Source: a virus
Taxonomy: Duplodnaviria; Heunggongvirae; Uroviricota; Caudoviricetes
Direction: 5' to 3' (one strand)
DNA: 42,647 nt
Virus record (IMG/VR): IMGVR_UViG_3300028797_000097
The translations under genes and the position numbers were made by a program. A model generated the notes under the pieces. It had not been told where the DNA came from and ran no database searches. It saw nothing but the letters and a program-made list of their open reading frames with translations. Below are positions 3,978-41,186 of the stretch, piece after piece (position 1 is the stretch's first letter; every line of letters starts with the position of its first letter).

Positions 3978-3993
3978 ATAAGAAGAAATACAG

Positions 3994-4030
3994 AATCTAG
4001 GGTTACAAAAACTCTAGATTTTTCTATATT
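3994..4030 (+). promoter_or_regulatory. Hairpin-embedded early promoter/terminator
   Basis: aatctag-(gGTTACAaaaact)-ctagatt-ttt, TATATT at N17. Confidence 0.75.
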
Positions 4031-4326: not shown

Positions 4327-4494
4327 ATGGCAAAGAAGAAAATCACCATTGAACTTGACGAACGTGACATGGAAACCTTGCACATCATTGCGGACTATCT
4401 CAACGAAGGTGATTGGGAGAACTTTGAAAGTCCCAAGAAGATGGAACGTGACTGGAATCGGTTTGTTGACCACGTGCATGGAGTTTGGAAGTAA
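4327..4494 (+). CDS. 55-aa hypothetical protein (MAKKKITIELDERD...)
   Basis: AAGGAG RBS; too short for the ORF track. Confidence 0.65.
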   Translation: MAKKKITIELDERDMETLHIIADYLNEGDWENFESPKKMERDWNRFVDHVHGVWK

Positions 4495-4579
4495 TCTGAA
4501 TTTCTTTTTCACCAACCACAACATTTACAATTATATCGAATTTAACTATATTTGATATATCAACAACGGAGATTGAAAC

Positions 4580-4669
4580 ATGGGTATTAGTCAAGAAGAA
4601 TACGAAGAATTCACCAAACGTCTGGAAGAAGAATTGTTCGACGCCATCGATGGTACGGAGGAAAACTAA
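4580..4669 (+). CDS. 29-aa acidic peptide
   Basis: Upstream TTTACA-N17-TATATT promoter and GGAG RBS; MGISQEEYEEFTKRLEEELFDAIDGTEEN; TAATG overlap with the next gene. Confidence 0.55.
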   Translation: MGISQEEYEEFTKRLEEELFDAIDGTEEN

Positions 4670-4941
4670 TGAAGAAGGTTATGTTTATCCAAATCTGTTT
4701 GATTCTCTGCAGTTTTGCATTGATTTTCCAAGGGTGTAGTAGTCAAGATGATCCAATCGAAGCCATGACCAAAAACAAACCACATACCATTATCATTCCG
4801 AATGTGGTCGAATGTAAGGGTCATGTGGAACGAGAAGGATTCAAACCGTTGCCGAAGATGCTGGTGTGTGATGATGGTCGTGTGTTCCATAACATTACCA
4901 ACTACCAAGATGTGATCGAACTGAATCCTCTGCGACAGTAA
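4669..4941 (+). CDS. Putative lipoprotein
   Basis: MKK followed by a hydrophobic stretch and an FQGC lipobox-like motif. Confidence 0.6.
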   Translation: MKKVMFIQICLILCSFALIFQGCSSQDDPIEAMTKNKPHTIIIPNVVECKGHVEREGFKPLPKMLVCDDGRVFHNITNYQDVIELNPLRQ

Positions 4942-4943
4942 AG

Positions 4944-5035
4944 GTTTTTCCATAACCTCCTGATGATGATCGAGATGACTGGGTGAAATATCCCAGTCAT
5001 TTCTTATTTACAAATATTCAGAATTTAACTATATT
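4944..5035 (+). repeat. Intergenic cassette copy 1: 26-nt conserved motif, hairpin, early promoter
   Basis: gtttttccataacctcctgatgatga, then gagatgactggg/cccagtcatttc stem, then TTTACA-N17-TATATT. Confidence 0.85.
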
Positions 5036-5058
5036 TAAAGTATAAAGAAGAGGTTATT

Positions 5059-5361
5059 ATGGAAACCATTATTGAAAAAAGACGTAGTTCTAAGACCTTT
5101 GGTTATGTCGTTGACATGGAAAATGATACCATGATTCTCGATTTCAATTCGTTGGAACCGGCGAAGAAGATGGGATTCCATATTATCCATAATTATGGTT
5201 TCAGCGAATATTTGAAATATGAAGCATCATTGATTACCTGTCAGGTATGTGGAAAAAGAGTGTTCGTATCGTTCGGAGTCGATCGTGTACGTCAACATGT
5301 ACCGAAATATACCGAGGTGATTAAATATTTCGAACAGATATTTGAAACTTTTGTTTCTTAA
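5059..5361 (+). CDS. Hypothetical early protein
   Basis: GAGG RBS; contains CxxC. Confidence 0.7.
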   Translation: METIIEKRRSSKTFGYVVDMENDTMILDFNSLEPAKKMGFHIIHNYGFSEYLKYEASLITCQVCGKRVFVSFGVDRVRQHVPKYTEVIKYFEQIFETFVS

Positions 5362-5422
5362 TCCAACCATTTACAAAAGTCCAGAATTTAACTATATTTA
5401 AGACATAAAGAAGAGGTTAATC

Positions 5423-5566
5423 ATGGAAGACATGACTTGGAAAGAAATTCTGTTCGTCATCATCATTTCGATTGTTGGTGGCTATATGGCCTATAACTAT
5501 GCTGAAAACTATCATGAAGTAGTAGCTGCTGCTAAGGTGATTAACGCACAAAACCAAAACAAGTAG
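5423..5566 (+). CDS. 47-aa membrane peptide
   Basis: Own promoter at about 5370-5398, GAGG RBS, hydrophobic helix. Confidence 0.6.
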   Translation: MEDMTWKEILFVIIISIVGGYMAYNYAENYHEVVAAAKVINAQNQNK

Positions 5567-5575
5567 GACGGAAAC

Positions 5576-5737
5576 ATGTTAATTAAATCCCGTTATAATG
5601 AGACAATCATATCTGACCACATTGAAAGTTTCAAGCGTCCGTATGGTTTGTTTCCATATTATCAAGTGGTTATGAAGTCTGGTGCTAAGCACGTTGTCCA
5701 TCCGGATGAACTACGTAAAGCGTTCCCTGACCTTTAA
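5576..5737 (+). CDS. 53-aa hypothetical protein
   Basis: AGGA RBS; ORF MLIKSRYNE... Confidence 0.5.
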   Translation: MLIKSRYNETIISDHIESFKRPYGLFPYYQVVMKSGAKHVVHPDELRKAFPDL

Positions 5738-5830
5738 TTAGAATCTGAATCTTTTATTTCTTAATCCAACCATTTACAAAACCGCAGAAATAAGCTATAT
5801 TATAAGTGTAAATCAACAGGAGATTAAAAT

Positions 5831-6463
5831 ATGGCAACAATCATTTTTTCTAACATGGGCGACACTGACACTGCGGTTCTGAGAAATCTCTGGAATGGAA
5901 TGCCGGATGTTAAGGTCGTTGAAATCGGTAAGTTCACGAGAAACGCACGTCGTATGGTTGACGAAGCAATCGCTCAAGAAACTGAAATGCTCGTGATGTG
6001 TGGGCACGGAACTCCGGAAGGTTTGATTAATCCGAATTTTACTGACTATGACCGCTATCTGGTTGACAGTCGCAATAAGAATCTGATCAGAGCAAAGTCC
6101 ATTGTCGGCATCTGGTGTCATGCAAAGGATTTCGCGGAACGTTACGGTGTTCGTGGTTTCTGGTCCAGCATGTTCATCAGCAATTTGATGGAAGCTCACT
6201 ACAACCATATCTACAATACCGACGCCGGAACGATTACCCACGACGAAACTATGTTCTGTCTGTTCACGAACTATCTGATTCGTAACAACGTTCCGCAGGA
6301 AAACTGGATTGATGTTCTCTGCAAGTGTGTGGATTTCAACGATCCGGTCATTCGATTCAACTACAGCGGACTCGTTTACTACGCAGAAGCTCCGAAGCCC
6401 AAATACAACTATGACCGCTGGTATAGTGTAATGGGATTTGAAAACACTCGCTGGTGGGGCTAA
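5831..6463 (+). CDS. Hypothetical protein, possible caspase/gingipain-fold (clan CD) peptidase
   Basis: LVMCGHG and IVGIWCHA strand-His-Gly and strand-Cys pattern; own promoter and AGGAG RBS. Confidence 0.5.
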   Translation: MATIIFSNMGDTDTAVLRNLWNGMPDVKVVEIGKFTRNARRMVDEAIAQETEMLVMCGHGTPEGLINPNFTDYDRYLVDSRNKNLIRAKSIVGIWCHAKDFAERYGVRGFWSSMFISNLMEAHYNHIYNTDAGTITHDETMFCLFTNYLIRNNVPQENWIDVLCKCVDFNDPVIRFNYSGLVYYAEAPKPKYNYDRWYSVMGFENTRWWG

Positions 6464-6555
6464 GTTTTTCCATAACCTCCTGATGATGAATGAGATGACC
6501 GAGATTAATTTCTCGGTCATTTCATATTTACAAATCTTCGGAATTTAACTATATT
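6464..6555 (+). repeat. Intergenic cassette copy 2
   Basis: Identical 26-nt motif, stem gagatgaccgaga/tctcggtcatttc, promoter. Confidence 0.85.
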
Positions 6556-6586
6556 ATAGATGTAACGAATAACAAAAGAGGTTAAC

Positions 6587-6817
6587 ATGTCATTGAAGAC
6601 GACGATTGAATGGTATACAACTCAGGAAAAGATGCCTACCGATAAGAGCAACGTTATGTTCGTTATGAAGAACGGAAAGACTCATTGTGGTTATTTCTAC
6701 ATCGCATGTGATATTCCACATTTCTGCTATGTTGACCGTGAATGGAATAATGTTACGAGAGATTGTCATATTCTCGATATTAAACTATGGGCATACCAAC
6801 CGACTGTAACGTTTTAA
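6587..6817 (+). CDS. DUF551-like phage protein
   Basis: W...EKMP N-terminus and WAY near the C-terminus. Confidence 0.55.
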   Translation: MSLKTTIEWYTTQEKMPTDKSNVMFVMKNGKTHCGYFYIACDIPHFCYVDREWNNVTRDCHILDIKLWAYQPTVTF

Positions 6818-6828
6818 TAGAGGCTATT

Positions 6829-7035
6829 ATGTGTGCATATTGTGAAGGTCCAATGACTTTAGCTCTTATTGAACTCGGTGAAATTACAAAAAATAAACAT
6901 GAATATTCCTACATTAAGATTGAAAAGGGTAGGTTAGTTTTCCGTTCTGTCAATAGCAAAACAGGTACGCCAACTGATATTGGTACGAGAGCTAAATTCT
7001 GCATTGAATGCGGAAGAAAATTAACCGAAGATTAA
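6829..7035 (+). CDS. Small zinc-finger protein
   Basis: GAGG RBS before MCAYC...; C-terminal CIECG. Confidence 0.65.
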   Translation: MCAYCEGPMTLALIELGEITKNKHEYSYIKIEKGRLVFRSVNSKTGTPTDIGTRAKFCIECGRKLTED

Positions 7036-7087
7036 TCATTTACAAAAATACAGAATTTAACTATATTATAGACATAACGATGAGGTT

Positions 7088-7405
7088 ATGAATATGAATA
7101 CAACACATTTTGTCATCATGAATCAAATGAACACCACCAACATGATTAATCAAATGAACATGATGCATATAATGCACAACCACAATACACCGGGAACGGT
7201 GTGCACTCTCACTGGTATGGATGTGGTGATTATGATTGTTGGATTCATTCTGCTCCTCTGGGGTGGCATAAAGGTCACGGAATGGCTGCTCGAAAAGACC
7301 TATAAAATGAAGGATCCGATGGGCTCTATCGTGTTTGTCGTCGGAATGTTTGGCTACGTAATCGTCGGTGTCACGGTAATTAGCCTGTTTATGTATCTGA
7401 TTTAA
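7088..7405 (+). CDS. Membrane protein with Met/Asn/His-rich N-terminus
   Basis: Two hydrophobic helices, low-complexity MN repeats, own promoter. Confidence 0.65.
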   Translation: MNMNTTHFVIMNQMNTTNMINQMNMMHIMHNHNTPGTVCTLTGMDVVIMIVGFILLLWGGIKVTEWLLEKTYKMKDPMGSIVFVVGMFGYVIVGVTVISLFMYLI

Positions 7406-7410
7406 CGAAA

Positions 7411-7502
7411 GTTTTTCCATAACCTCCTGATGATGATAGAGGCACCTGGGTGAAATATCCCAGGTGTTTCTTATTTACAAAATATCCAAATTTTTCTATA
7501 TT
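7411..7502 (+). repeat. Intergenic cassette copy 3
   Basis: Identical 26-nt motif, stem gaggcacctggg/cccaggtgtttc, promoter. Confidence 0.85.
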
Positions 7503-7525
7503 ATAGATGTAACACGGAGGTTATC

Positions 7526-7756
7526 ATGTTTAAGAAGTTCATAGAAAGAATCAAAGCAGCATTCACGTTTAAACCGACTGCCATCAAACTCGACCCAAAG
7601 AATTTTACTCCATTTCAATGGAATTTGATTCAGAAGCATGAACGTTTCATTGGGGAAAAGAATCGTAACTATTTCCGTGACCATGCGGAAGATTGGGCTA
7701 AATGCTGGGATGAAGAATATTACCGAGCAAAAACTGCCACAGCAAGAGGTAAGTGA
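7526..7756 (+). CDS. Hypothetical early protein
   Basis: GGAGG RBS. Confidence 0.7.
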   Translation: MFKKFIERIKAAFTFKPTAIKLDPKNFTPFQWNLIQKHERFIGEKNRNYFRDHAEDWAKCWDEEYYRAKTATARGK

Positions 7757-7772
7757 TTAATTTAAAAACAAG

Positions 7773-7809
7773 AATTCAGGGTTACAAAACTCTGGATTTT
7801 TTCTATATT
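7773..7809 (+). promoter_or_regulatory. Hairpin-embedded early promoter/terminator
   Basis: aattcagg-GTTACAaaac-tctggatt-tttt, TATATT at N17. Confidence 0.7.
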
Positions 7810-7842
7810 ATAGATGTAACCAACAAATAAAAGGAAATTAAA

Positions 7843-8007
7843 ATGACACTCGTTTTCGCAATCATCGCAATCGTATGCATCTGTTTTGGGATTTGCCAAC
7901 TCTGTGGCGGCTATGCGGTGGGTTCTGGTTTCGCTGCTATTCTATTTGGTGTGGTATTGGCATTGCAGGAATGCGTTGGCGTCATCGATGTGATACCTAT
8001 GGTTTAA
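7843..8007 (+). CDS. 54-aa two-helix membrane peptide
   Basis: AAGGA RBS; almost entirely hydrophobic. Confidence 0.6.
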   Translation: MTLVFAIIAIVCICFGICQLCGGYAVGSGFAAILFGVVLALQECVGVIDVIPMV

Positions 8008-9192: not shown

Positions 9193-9948
9193 ATGTTTAC
9201 GAACGACTATTGCCAATATGTCTATGATTACTTCAATAAGGATTTCTTCCAGAAAGAACTTGGAGTCAAGCTTGGAAAGTGTACGATCTTCACCAACAAG
9301 AAAGGTGATGCGAAGAAGATCTTTCCATCAAGCTTAAACGGGGATAAGGAGGATGATCCATTCGGCCTTTCCATAACTCTGTTAGGACATAACTACATCT
9401 GGATCAACCCGTTACTCCTCAACAGCAAGAAACTCCTAGTCAACACCATTCTCCATGAGATGATTCACCTGTATGTCAACGCTGTGGGTAACAACGGATC
9501 CAGACGTTACCGTCAAGGACATGGAAAGCTTTGGACCCAGACAGCGAAGTATGCCCAGTCGTTGTACGGTGAAGACCTCGGTAATATAGAACAATTCGCG
9601 ACCAAAGATGAGATGAAGAAGTATAACCATTATTACGGAATCAGAACAACTAAGTCTCTGGTCAATGCGTATTTGGTTAAGCTCACATCAGGTGATTTGG
9701 TTCCGTTGAAGGATTTAACTCCAGAACAGATTGTGGAACTCCAGGGGATGAATATCATTGGTATTTACCAGGTGAAACCAGGAATCCAGCAGGAACCGAG
9801 CAAGAGAGTAACAAAGTTCATCGATTGGGACACGCTTATCGATTGTATCGAAAACGGAATCGATTATGAAACAGAATCGGTCTGTGGTCATTTAAGGATT
9901 AAAATAGGTGAGGACACCGATACAGTTTGGCTTAGAAGACGCGGATAG
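9193..9948 (+). CDS. SprT-like zinc metalloprotease
   Basis: TILHEMIH followed by GHG..W; N-terminal Y..FN..FF. Confidence 0.8.
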   Translation: MFTNDYCQYVYDYFNKDFFQKELGVKLGKCTIFTNKKGDAKKIFPSSLNGDKEDDPFGLSITLLGHNYIWINPLLLNSKKLLVNTILHEMIHLYVNAVGNNGSRRYRQGHGKLWTQTAKYAQSLYGEDLGNIEQFATKDEMKKYNHYYGIRTTKSLVNAYLVKLTSGDLVPLKDLTPEQIVELQGMNIIGIYQVKPGIQQEPSKRVTKFIDWDTLIDCIENGIDYETESVCGHLRIKIGEDTDTVWLRRRG

Positions 9949-9974: not shown

Positions 9975-10442
9975 ATGAAACCAGAGGTTAAGAAAGCTTT
10001 ATATCTATTGGAAAACATTGGTTATACGGTAAAGCCAATGAATGAATCAGAACAGCAGGATTTAATTGATACCATCAAGTCCAAGTATGACGAATGGAAT
10101 GAATTGCGTAATACCCCGGAAGGTGATGACTTATGGGATGAAATGGCTGATGCTTATGGTAATGACCTTATTGATTTAGCTGTCGATGAATATGATAATC
10201 TTAAGAACGGAAAGCCTGTAGACATGACTGGTTACTTGGCCCACGCTGATGCTTTATACCCGGAATTCTTCGAGCTTATGCAGAAGGTCGGCGCTAAGGC
10301 ATTTAAGATTAACACTAAGGAAGCATTCGGCGGAAAAGCTTATTACCTCTATCAAGCTATTGCAGAGGGTAACATCCAGTTGCATCCGGAAGCTTATAAC
10401 TCCAGCGCTCCAGAATATGCTTTCTTCACCATAAAGGACTAA
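9975..10442 (+). CDS. Late hypothetical protein, possibly head-associated
   Basis: TATAAATA at 9950-9957, AAGGAG RBS, LLE/N and MNE/S putative cleavage sites. Confidence 0.65.
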   Translation: MKPEVKKALYLLENIGYTVKPMNESEQQDLIDTIKSKYDEWNELRNTPEGDDLWDEMADAYGNDLIDLAVDEYDNLKNGKPVDMTGYLAHADALYPEFFELMQKVGAKAFKINTKEAFGGKAYYLYQAIAEGNIQLHPEAYNSSAPEYAFFTIKD

Positions 10443-10477
10443 CTCCTCATTAGTTGCCAGAAACAAAGAATATACAG

Positions 10478-10516
10478 AAATCTAGGGTTGACAAAGCCCT
10501 AGGTTTTTATTATATT
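10478..10516 (+). promoter_or_regulatory. Hairpin-embedded early promoter/terminator
   Basis: aaatctaggg-TTGACAaag-ccctaggttt-tt, TATATT at N17. Confidence 0.78.
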
Positions 10517-11330: not shown

Positions 11331-11369
11331 AAAGTCCGGGGTTACAAAACTCCGGATTTTTTCTATATT
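11331..11369 (+). promoter_or_regulatory. Hairpin-embedded early promoter/terminator
   Basis: aagtccggg-GTTACAaaac-tccggattt-ttt, TATATT at N17. Confidence 0.75.
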
Positions 11370-20434: not shown

Positions 20435-20455
20435 ATTTTACCCTATAAATAATGT

Positions 20456-21820
20456 ATGACGAAATTATCAGAAAGTGAGAAGTTTAATGACCTTGATATA
20501 AATCGATTGGCTAGACAGGTTAGACAGAATGACGGTCGTGCTAATCGAGGGATTGTATATCAGGACGATAAGCGATATAATGATTATCAGGGTGAGAAAT
20601 GGCTGGATGTAAGAAGTAAGGATAAGAAAACTCTTATTGCAGCTATCCTTGACGGTATGTCTGATGTTCAATATCATTATAAGGGAAAGTTATATAAAGA
20701 TATTAAGAACGAGGATGATTTAATGGCCTCATACGAAGCCAATAAGGCTGTTGTGGACTCGATTTTAAATTTCCTAAGTAAATATATGCATGGACATACA
20801 ACGGTCTACAGAGGCTTCGGATTTAGCTCTGATGAGTATCGTAGGATGAAGCACAAGAATAATATTACATTTGAACATCAGTTCTTGAAAATATTGAATA
20901 ATAGGGGTAAGAAATTTAATTCTTTTAGTGTTTCTCCATTTATAAGTAAGGATTTTGCAGAAGGTGGTGGTAATAAAGCCATTGTCATTGCCGCAGATGT
21001 AGAACCGAATGATATTGCTTTCGCATTTACTGCTTATTTGTTGGGAAGACATGGAAGTCCTGAAGAATTGGAATTGAATATCAATAACCTTAAGGATTTA
21101 AAGAATTTAAGAATTATTAAAGATATTGATGCTGAATGTGCACGATTTGTTAAATATACAGATACAGAAGAAGAATTACAGAAAAGATTGGATTCTGGCG
21201 AATCTATGGAATCTGTATTTAAGTATGTAAAGAAACTTAAGGTTTTTAGCGGAACAATTTATAAATGTGGAACATTATGTGGTGAGGTTATTGTCAAGGA
21301 TAATAAGATTGTTGTTCCTCGTAGTAGAGAAATACATTATATAAAAGACGGAATATTTGTTATTACTCCTATGGATGATCCTACTGAACATAATATATTG
21401 TATAACTTTAATAATGAAACTAAGAGCAAGTCATATGAAGGTATATTATTCTATGGTGCTGATAGCGATGATAAATTGATAATCGCATATAATGGTGATA
21501 ACAAGTATACATTATTGGATATGGAAACATGTGAATCGAAATTCAAGGGATATGCAAAGAAAATTTCACGCTTACCAGGAGTTACATGGTACGGGCAGAA
21601 AAATATTTGGCATACTGTTGAATTTTATTTAGTAACATTAATGGATAACACAGTTACAATTTTCAACAATACTGGTCATTGTGTATTCAGACGTGCCCCA
21701 TATACGTTTACTAAGATTGATTGCGACTCAGATAAATTGATAATGACTTGTCTGGAACAACCTGGTAAAAAACCTCGACGATTCTCAATCAAAAATAATT
21801 TAGCAATCGAAGAAATGTAA
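20456..21820 (+). CDS. Putative ADP-ribosyltransferase (R-S-E type) with C-terminal beta-repeat region; late gene
   Basis: TVYRG...FNSFSVS...EELEL motif order; TATAAATA at 20444. Confidence 0.55.
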   Translation: MTKLSESEKFNDLDINRLARQVRQNDGRANRGIVYQDDKRYNDYQGEKWLDVRSKDKKTLIAAILDGMSDVQYHYKGKLYKDIKNEDDLMASYEANKAVVDSILNFLSKYMHGHTTVYRGFGFSSDEYRRMKHKNNITFEHQFLKILNNRGKKFNSFSVSPFISKDFAEGGGNKAIVIAADVEPNDIAFAFTAYLLGRHGSPEELELNINNLKDLKNLRIIKDIDAECARFVKYTDTEEELQKRLDSGESMESVFKYVKKLKVFSGTIYKCGTLCGEVIVKDNKIVVPRSREIHYIKDGIFVITPMDDPTEHNILYNFNNETKSKSYEGILFYGADSDDKLIIAYNGDNKYTLLDMETCESKFKGYAKKISRLPGVTWYGQKNIWHTVEFYLVTLMDNTVTIFNNTGHCVFRRAPYTFTKIDCDSDKLIMTCLEQPGKKPRRFSIKNNLAIEEM

Positions 21821-37930: not shown

Positions 37931-38030
37931 AATTTTTAACCGTTTTCTACAAATATAGTAAAAAATAACGTCTTATTTATGTAAATTGTAAAAAATTTTG
38001 AACATTATTATGAAAAACTATAAATAATGT

Positions 38031-38852
38031 ATGAAATCCATTTGGAATAATACCTTTTATAATACCCAACCAGCTCTTGCTTGGACATTTGAACTTTCAT
38101 TTGATGAATATTATGAAGGCGATAATAATGAAAATGCTGCAGGATTAAACAGATTTGCCCAAGCAGCAGTTGATATATCTGTAGGTAAACGTGAAAGTGA
38201 ATATGTTAGCGTTTATTATGGCGGTGTTGAATTTAAGAAATTAACTCGTGCGCAAAATACTGGAACTTTTACAATAAAATTTAACGAAGATAAATTTTAT
38301 ACAATTACTGGTATTCTTGAAAATATTTACAATAATGATAATTTAAATCAAAACTATTTTGATGCAGGAACGCATGTATATAATTGGCCTACTATAGGAA
38401 CAAGAAAAATTGTAGTTAAGATGTATGACCCAAATACAATGCATGTAGATCCAAATCCTGTAGTTTCTTATGAATTTTATAATTGTCATATTATGAGTAT
38501 TGACGATGCAAGTTTATCATATGAAAGCAGTGATACTATAACAAGATCTGTAACATTTGTATATGACTATATGAAATATAGAGATTTCAGAGCTGAAGCT
38601 GCTAAAGAACAAAGAAAGAAAGAAGCAGAAGAGCAAGCTAAGAAATCTGCGGAGAAGAAGGCAGAATTAGCAGCAACACGTCAGGATAGAGTTAAAGAAA
38701 TGGGTGTTTTGGGTATGATTGCTGCAAATGAACAAAATTGGAATAATGCTACAGCATTAGCTGATGAAGAATTAGATAGAGATATTCAAAATCAAAAAGC
38801 ATATACTAATATGCAGGCAAGTCGTGGCGGTTATCGTGGAGGACATAGATAA
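38031..38852 (+). CDS. Tail tube-like protein (T4 gp19/gp54 fold) with helical C-terminal extension
   Basis: Late promoter at 38019; YYGG....GTFTIKF...YEFYNC...LSYE......VTF.YD. Confidence 0.65.
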   Translation: MKSIWNNTFYNTQPALAWTFELSFDEYYEGDNNENAAGLNRFAQAAVDISVGKRESEYVSVYYGGVEFKKLTRAQNTGTFTIKFNEDKFYTITGILENIYNNDNLNQNYFDAGTHVYNWPTIGTRKIVVKMYDPNTMHVDPNPVVSYEFYNCHIMSIDDASLSYESSDTITRSVTFVYDYMKYRDFRAEAAKEQRKKEAEEQAKKSAEKKAELAATRQDRVKEMGVLGMIAANEQNWNNATALADEELDRDIQNQKAYTNMQASRGGYRGGHR

Positions 38853-40625: not shown

Positions 40626-40718
40626 TTCTAATCGAAATTTTAAGAAATAACCAGAGTAATTCTGGTTATTTTTTTATTTTTTATGATATTAACATCAATT
40701 TAAAACTATAAATAATAC

Positions 40719-41186
40719 ATGAATAATATTATCGTTAATGGTGAGGACAATAAGCAGCTTGCATTGTATATTGGTAATAAAATTAGGAATTTTAAGACCA
40801 GTTATCCAATGAAAAGAGACTATTGTGGAGACATTAATGATGAACTTCGTGAAGAATTGTCATATGATGGTATCAGATGTAAACGAATTTATGGATTGTA
40901 TAAAGTAAATACGTTTATTGGTTGGCTTGATGAGGAAGATTTTACCGAAGAAGAGTTAGATGAGATTACCAAAAAATATGGCGGAACATATCGAGAAGAT
41001 TTAGAGGAATACGTAAAGAATTTACCAGAAGAAAAACAAAAAGAACATCTTTATATTCCACATGTTTTCTTGCAATGTAAGGAACTTATACTTGATGCCG
41101 CTTCAGATATGTTTAATGGATTTGGCACACATTCTAAATATAGATATTACTATGACAACTATTCACCTGTTATTGGAGTTAGATAA
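40719..41186 (+). CDS. Late hypothetical protein, possible transglutaminase/papain-like C-H-D triad
   Basis: YCG...HVFL...ILDA spacing; TATAAATA at 40707. Confidence 0.45.
   Translation: MNNIIVNGEDNKQLALYIGNKIRNFKTSYPMKRDYCGDINDELREELSYDGIRCKRIYGLYKVNTFIGWLDEEDFTEEELDEITKKYGGTYREDLEEYVKNLPEEKQKEHLYIPHVFLQCKELILDAASDMFNGFGTHSKYRYYYDNYSPVIGVR

Follow-up and report, generated by a model that had tools for sequence, protein, structure and literature searches.

A conserved anti-Shine-Dalgarno box in promoter-early stem-loop-type cassettes of a distant T4-like rumen phage

Three junctions between early genes in the Caudoviricetes record IMGVR_UViG_3300028797_000097 (42,647 nucleotides (nt), the whole of which is called the window here) carry an identical 26-nt box, GTTTTTCCATAACCTCCTGATGATGA, close behind a stop codon and directly ahead of a hairpin and a promoter. 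The 8-nt core of the box, TAACCTCC, is the complement of GGAGGTTA, the Shine-Dalgarno (SD) sequence of the early genes of this phage. As far as their sequence tells, the three junctions are cassettes of the promoter-early stem-loop (PeSL) type, in which a promoter is combined with a terminator. The reading we favour, tentatively and with a probability of about 0.4, is that the box belongs to the left module of such a cassette and serves as a generic anti-translation-initiation-region (anti-TIR) arm, folding back on the SD of its own mRNA.

The box within a shuffled cassette

The box occurs on the plus strand at 4944-4969, 6464-6489 and 7411-7436, with the core at 4953-4960, 6473-6480 and 7420-7427, and begins 2, 0 and 5 nt behind the stop codons of the open reading frames (ORFs) 4669-4941, 5831-6463 and 7088-7405. 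No further copy is present in the window when up to 3 mismatches are allowed, and 100 dinucleotide shuffles gave 0 matches, so the observation from which the original prediction started, a 26-mer repeated exactly close behind stop codons, is secure. The cassettes as a whole form a 121-nt repeat family with 76-79% identity, in which exactness is confined to the 26-mer. We rejected a role as a set of stop codons in all three frames, because the box itself closes two frames only. The ten ORFs flanking the cassettes are small ORFans, none of which matched in a Pfam search.

Behind each box lies a strong hairpin with a U-rich tail (-22 to -26 kcal/mol; z -2.9 to -5.0). The first (4972-5003) has a 12-bp stem and the loop UGAAAUAU, followed by UUAUUU; the second (6490-6525) has a 15-bp stem and a differing loop, AUUAAU; the third (7438-7471) has a 13-bp stem with compensatory changes and again the loop UGAAAUAU. 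Among 26 distinct copies, 97.7% of alignment cells are paired and both sides have changed in 7 of the 12 pairs, a covariation score reached by 0 of 500 shuffles, while slid controls drop to 36-57% pairing; this confirms the compensatory changes first noticed in the stem. Although the stem covaries, the loop is nearly invariant in most copies (4984-4991 and 7451-7458 in the window), which is not usual in a plain terminator and may point to a site for protein binding. A boxA/boxB nut-like element was also considered for this hairpin, which has a terminator-type U-tail, and Rfam gave no covariance-model match at E <= 1 over 4400-7900 on either strand.

Each hairpin is followed by the promoter-like sequence TTTACA-N17-TATATT (5007-5035, 6527-6555 and 7474-7502), which agrees with 10 of 12 consensus positions, and the early promoters expected behind each stem can accordingly be retained as predicted sigma-70-type sites. 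Next comes the TIR of a small gene: GAGGTTATTATG at 5050-5061 for ORF 5059-5361, GAGGTTAACATG at 6578-6589 for ORF 6587-6817 and GGAGGTTATCATG at 7516-7528 for ORF 7526-7756. PeSLs were described in T4-type phages as repeated intergenic composites in which an upstream stop codon is followed by a stem-loop, a sigma-70-like promoter and finally the SD and start of an ORFan; they cluster in hyperplastic regions and are the means by which modules are shuffled (Arbiol et al. 2010, PMC2839356; Comeau et al. 2014, PMC4122927). The junctions studied here share this order of stop, stem-loop, early promoter, SD and start of a small ORFan, with a predicted sigma-70-like early promoter in intergenic space and a stable stem-loop adjacent to it; they likewise occur in many copies in hyperplastic regions, and the gene content of relatives differs exactly at them. 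All three belong to the PeSL class with the stem-loop upstream of the -35 box. The class most commonly described for RB49 and phi1, with the stem-loop around the -35, is also present in the window, at 765-795, 1220-1246, 3992-4022, 7770-7801, 10476-10508 and 11331-11360, where the -35 (GTTACA/TTGACA) lies in or beside the loop and the -10 box follows directly. Unlike published PeSLs, the stems of the rumen-phage cassettes are not of the G(n)-loop-C(n) type, and their carrier is a phage far removed from the cultured ones, with a relative of 424 kb.

The window encodes a family B DNA polymerase (polB), both subunits of a split topoisomerase II and an NAD ligase. Its polB is 26-29% identical to gp43 of cultured T4-like phages, and together with the split topoisomerase II and the late TATAAATA boxes this identifies the window, on sequence grounds, as part of a very distant, uncultured T4-like phage from a jumbo-phage lineage of the ruminant gut or rumen. 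Megablast and blastn searches of 4600-7800 against GenBank phages gave zero matches; once these nucleotide searches of cultured phages had come back empty, relatives were collected through pattern scans. They are uncultured metagenome contigs, many of them sampled from ruminant gut, and one of them (G003, 424 kb, with terminal repeats) is complete. Two short contigs carrying the cassettes (L157 and L172) sit in metagenome-assembled genomes (MAGs) labelled Methanobrevibacter sp. (goat ileum) and Faecalimonas sp.; these placements are probably binning errors and unusable for host inference.

Counting copies in the relatives gave 54 distinct ones, which lie behind at least 31 different upstream gene tails and make up 47 different combinations of upstream gene, hairpin and downstream gene. 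Homologues of ORF 5831-6463, for example, are joined to 6 different downstream genes through 3 hairpin types, and in some contigs the TAA within the box now serves as the stop codon of the homologue of ORF 6587-6817. As in PeSLs, the cassettes mark insertion, deletion and replacement differences between close relatives. The suggestion that the element is a recombination handle for cassette shuffling, put forward in the original prediction as an alternative, thus has strong comparative support, and it agrees with what has been published on PeSLs. What appears to be new is the conserved anti-TIR module added to the PeSL, which judged by the available sequences is so far restricted to one rumen jumbo-phage lineage. 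The two PeSL papers (PMC2839356, PMC4122927) mention no inverted, complementary or antisense element and no conserved linear box between stop and stem-loop, and the first 50 kb of RB49, the type PeSL phage, contain no such box: there are 5 sense-strand CCTCC, none of them in the context of a 3' untranslated region (3'UTR) and terminator. RB49 (L207, NC_005066) does have, at ~9400-9455 on the minus strand, an early 5'UTR whose own SD, immediately ahead of the ATG, is enclosed in a hairpin, CCTCC-N13-GGAGG; by its sequence, this is a different, local form of SD masking inside a PeSL.

Conservation of the core and exchange at the junctions

Across many copies, the invariant part of the box is the 8-nt core, which lies 6-14 nt past the stop codon in most of the 54. 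The left part, GTTTTTCCA, which holds the anti-start CAT, is swapped in many copies for gaaa, ttga, tgat, ttag, ctgt, acgt and others, and a short form of the element, TGT-TAACCTCC-N3-5-hairpin, is devoid of the right part TGATGATGA. An invariant sequence that is at once anti-SD and anti-start, as first proposed, therefore survives in its anti-SD half, the most conserved part, and not in the CAT, which varies or is absent in many copies. Two structural interpretations of the box were dropped: CUGAUGAUGA as a k-turn or C/D-box, for which there is no partner CUGA/UGA strand and whose motif is gone from the short form, and the box as a mimic of the 16S rRNA 3' end, in which the order of hairpin and anti-SD (aSD) sequence is reversed.

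The whole genome of G003 contains TAACCTCC or its complement just 16 times, and 9 of these are short forms, built of a stop codon, usually TTTCATGT, the core, 3-12 nt and a terminator. All 9 fall within 282-317 kb; 4 of them have no promoter behind, and one stands ahead of a late TATAAATA. When family members were ascertained by their hairpin (about 34), the exact core was found in 29, AAACCTCC in 1, TAACCCTC in 1 and no core in 3; a scan of IMG/VR by the hairpin alone returned the core in 5 of 5 matches, and a scan with the core replaced by N returned unrelated sequences only. Many of the matches to our patterns in metagenomes and genomes were true ribosome-binding sites (RBSs) on the opposite strand, unrelated to the element, and were filtered out. 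On this sequence evidence, the aSD core is the most conserved linear part of the element, and it travels with the terminator, not with the promoter. The original prediction had turned on the core being better conserved than its flanks, and about 50 further copies together with a second sequence subfamily bear this out.

How this conservation is maintained is where a purely recombinational explanation becomes a serious rival, if in our judgement an unlikely one. It holds that the box is a recombination handle only, a fossil inverted TIR left, for example, by an inversion or a former divergent start, whose identity is kept by exchange or gene conversion and which has no role in RNA. The 26-mer is the longest identical block of the junction, and the upstream gene, the type of hairpin and the downstream gene are freely recombined around it; T4-type recombination works via short homology patches, and PeSLs have been proposed as exchange sites (PMC2839356). 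That PeSLs of RB49 function without such a box, and that the box shows no specificity for its own TIR, also fit this explanation. However, the core is kept in a second subfamily with other flanks (CATGT-TAACCTCC-N3-5), where no long homology block is left, and at promoterless terminators, and is thus not bound to the entire cassette. The neighbouring hairpin, moreover, has diverged by compensatory change while the core remained exact. An exposed aSD 8-mer is also expected to be costly and is depleted in bacterial genes (PMC12697547), which makes its neutral persistence unlikely and counts against recombination as the only role.

Predicted pairing and the partner of the box

GAGGTTA precedes the start codon of 10 plus-strand genes in the window as the early-gene SD, and downstream of the cassettes it appears as GAGGTTA-N2-3-ATG. 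The box was proposed to be the reverse complement of such an RBS, and this is exact: the minus-strand readings of all three boxes are complementary without a flaw. When the reverse complement of the 26-mer is scored with a profile of 158 promoter-proximal TIRs, it reaches 16.6 bits, compared with 4.2 +/- 4.9 bits for versions with shuffled flanks and a fixed GGAGG core (p = 0.005), so the likeness goes past the SD core to take in a whole TIR. In G003, the box likewise reads as a textbook TIR in its reverse complement, GGAGGTTAACATGAAA.

Such a likeness raises the question of whether the minus strand itself is read, with AGGAGGTTATG as a real RBS and start for the antisense ORFs 4953-4666, 6473-6357 and 7420-7061. 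From the box ATG, these ORFs run for 95, 38 and 119 codons, two of them being co-extensive with sense genes, and the plus-strand -10 region has TATAAT as its reverse complement. In homologues, however, the antisense ORFs shrink to 7-34 codons or lose their ATG in several cases, while the sense ORFs are intact in all, and variable sites peak at position 3 of the sense codons (53, 117 and 49 sites, versus 16, 38 and 20 at position 2). The box ATG is absent from many copies, and the SD-ATG spacing in the window form is just 2 nt. On the truncation in homologues, the variation at codon position 3, the missing ATG and the short spacing, we rejected a minus-strand gene start, which has hardly any chance of being correct. 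Long antisense ORFs that overlie sense genes (minus strand, 4666-4953, 5813-6520 and 7061-7420) are not conserved and could mislead ORF callers; they appear, from their sequence, to be in-register artefacts of codon usage.

In the plus-strand RNA, local folds leave the box unpaired ahead of the hairpin, and folding of the predicted primary transcripts brings each box together with the TIR near the start of the same RNA. Box 2 pairs through 6477-6487 with 5812-5822 (P ~1.0, a span of 650 nt), which lies in the TIR of ORF 5831-6463 (AUCAACAGGAG...AUG, 5812-5833), and box 3 pairs through 7418-7426 with 7082-7090 (P ~0.99), in the TIR of ORF 7088/7094-7405 (GAGGUUAUGAAUAUG, 7082-7096). The predicted partner of box 1 (4957-4969) in the full-length transcript of the first transcription unit is 4560-4571 (P 0.6-0.75), within the 5'-proximal TIR at 4560-4582, whose SD GGAG at 4568-4571 precedes the ATG at 4580 of a 29-codon ORF. 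This small ORF (4580-4669) overlaps, via TAATG, the start of the 90-amino-acid protein encoded at 4669-4941, whose N-terminus (MKK...LCSLALIFQGCS) resembles a lipoprotein signal peptide with a lipobox cysteine. In 15 monocistronic units of the clade, the SD is predicted to pair with the box at a mean P of 0.78, and the SD is unpaired with a probability of 0.45 when the 3'UTR is left out and of 0.13 when it is included. Fold-back in cis, one of the modes of action originally suggested, is therefore well supported thermodynamically (P 0.6-1.0 in 3 of 3 window units, and the mean of 0.78 over 15), as a prediction. Pairing energies point to a generic arm: the box has complementarity to almost every early TIR (median duplex energy, -11.4 kcal/mol), and the value of -14.3 for its own TIRs is not a significant preference (p = 0.08).

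There are bacterial precedents for this fold-back reading. In Bacillus subtilis, aSD-like 8-mers that sit 467 nt into a transcript base-pair in vivo with the SD, shorten the mRNA half-life from 11.2 to 1.7 min and lower translation even at >500 nt, and aSD-like sequences show depletion in natural genes (Gill et al. 2025 preprint, PMC12697547). The likeness to the phage element lies in the distant aSD-like 8-mer complementary to an SD, with destabilised mRNA and reduced translation in B. subtilis and predicted pairing in the phage; the difference is that such 8-mers are depleted in natural genes there, whereas the phage keeps a perfect one at its mRNA 3' ends. In Staphylococcus aureus, the icaR 3'UTR contains the motif UCCCCUG, which blocks initiation by pairing with the SD of its own mRNA (PMC3868564). 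The phage box resembles it as a pyrimidine-rich anti-SD motif in the 3'UTR of the mRNA it is predicted to pair with, 6-14 nt past the stop in most copies and locally unpaired. It differs from icaR, a single bacterial gene with a long 3'UTR, in being short, repeated and portable, placed right behind the stop and fused to a terminator.

We therefore favour a model with a DNA level and an RNA level. Each copy would be the left module, comprising 3'UTR and terminator, of a PeSL-type cassette that lies in the hyperplastic early region of this distant T4-like jumbo phage, with the layout of stop codon, 6-14 nt, unpaired box with the core UAACCUCC, putative intrinsic-terminator hairpin, an early promoter predicted to be of the sigma-70 type and the next small gene with its SD and start. 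At the DNA level, comparison among relatives shows that the cassette is the junction at which related phages exchange gene modules. At the RNA level, the box would be a universal anti-TIR, the reverse complement of the consensus early TIR of the phage. Being transcribed last, it would pair with the SD of the same mRNA, several hundred nt away, once that mRNA is complete; this would shut the RBS, largely limit translation to the co-transcriptional period and probably hasten mRNA decay. Since the core lies 6-14 nt past the stop, it falls within the footprint of a terminating ribosome, and it is conceivable that ribosome traffic holds the mRNA open and that closure follows when traffic lapses. 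In those transcripts that continue past the terminator, the box would instead pair with the TIR of the next gene, which would then be translated only from transcripts of its own promoter.

This last effect could also be the main role of the box, namely read-through insulation in which it sequesters the next TIR in transcripts that escape the terminator, although we think this distinctly improbable. In all three read-through RNAs the box is predicted, in both minimum-free-energy (MFE) and centroid structures, to pair around the terminator hairpin with the downstream TIR, and in the three window copies the promoter sits between the two arms. GAGGTTA follows downstream in 27 of 45 box cassettes versus 67 of 192 (p = 0.002), a comparison in which the copies are non-independent. 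T4 offers a precedent, since upstream-initiated transcripts of e, soc, 49 and I-TevI are silent through TIR sequestration (review PMC3014915). As in the T4 gene e type, the 5' arm of the predicted inhibitory helix lies upstream of a promoter, so that only the transcripts of that promoter would be translated. The T4 device, however, separates early from late expression of single genes, each with its own sequence, whereas the phage has one generic arm at many early-early junctions and at terminators with no gene following. Both neighbours being early genes, the benefit of insulation is unclear. Of 45 copies, 8 precede genes without an SD, with leaderless starts directly past the -10, so a maskable TIR does not always follow, and in G003 neither a promoter nor a gene start lies behind 4 of the 9 copies, and one is followed by a leaderless late gene. 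The box is kept where no gene follows the terminator and where the next gene is leaderless, which points to the upstream mRNA as the source of its primary partner and thus to fold-back; where an SD does follow, the downstream TIR would in addition be masked in read-through RNA, as a secondary effect. Several early promoters of relatives (L004:1010-1045, L021 at ~1560-1600 and L083 at ~10120-10150) have an ATG 6-7 nt past the -10 box and no SD, which suggests that some early genes of the lineage are leaderless, as late genes are.

Small RNAs derived from 3'UTRs usually carry an unpaired seed directly upstream of an intrinsic terminator. The box has this layout and is multicopy, and trans action was considered, in which terminator-protected 3' fragments made of box, hairpin and U-tail pile up as sibling small RNAs whose CCUCC seed masks early-phage and host SDs. 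The complementarity to nearly all early TIRs would provide the targets, and late genes, which start 4 nt after TATAAATA, would be immune. However, there is no conserved internal promoter or processing site upstream of the box, where the left flank is U-rich in most copies and variable; the Rfam search yields no match; and kinetics favour intramolecular pairing over pairing in trans. In T4, no trans-acting small RNA has been characterised (PMC3014915). The processed small RNA envisaged in the original prediction thus lacks support, and we regard trans action as having little chance of being right. The accompanying analogy with type I toxin mRNAs also fails. The resemblance to hok is that a 3'-end element is predicted to pair with the 5' translation-activating region of the full-length mRNA; unlike hok, the phage has no antisense RNA partner and no evidence of 3' processing, and the upstream genes are diverse, with no enrichment of small hydrophobic products (membrane proteins account for 2 of 10 box-terminated genes versus 33 of 141).

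Several points weigh against fold-back. Most loci were fetched by patterns in which the core is fixed, and its conservation is in part a product of ascertainment; the copy with the mutated core TAACCCTC departs from it; and identity within one genome could be maintained by gene conversion alone. The predicted pairing follows almost automatically from any CCUCC near SD-led genes, and because own-TIR pairing is no better than pairing to other early TIRs, no covariation points to a specific partner, only to a generic arm. The copies ahead of SD-less genes count here as well, and one box-terminated unit itself appears leaderless. Transcript ends, terminator efficiency and pairing in the model rest on thermodynamic and sequence prediction, and the anti-SD character is defined by the phage's own SDs.

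Meaning for modular early genes

The late TATAAATA boxes of the window (20444-20458, 38019-38033 and 40707-40721) lie exactly 4 nt before the starts of ORFs 20456, 38031 and 40719, so that late mRNAs look leaderless, unlike the early genes, which are strongly SD-led. A more speculative possibility, which we consider a long shot, is that the 3' ends of abundant early mRNAs, box and terminator together, persist as stable fragments and jointly form an anti-SD sponge that masks early phage and host SDs in the course of infection. If so, ribosomes would pass to the SD-independent late mRNAs, giving an RNA-based early-to-late switch with a role matching that of the RegB nuclease in T4.

PeSLs are the proposed engine of gene shuffling in T4-type phages and have so far been described as a promoter and a stem-loop only. 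The rumen jumbo-phage lineage contributes a third portable part, a generic anti-RBS sequence at the mRNA 3' end. Should the box be a recombination patch only, the cassette would be an ordinary PeSL variant. If fold-back is true, each shuffled gene would bring along not only a promoter and a terminator but also a built-in limiter of its translation or mRNA life. The lineage would then make natural, modular use of the long-range anti-SD effect shown in B. subtilis, which is otherwise selected against in genes, and the box would offer a compact, transferable part with which to tune expression in synthetic constructs.

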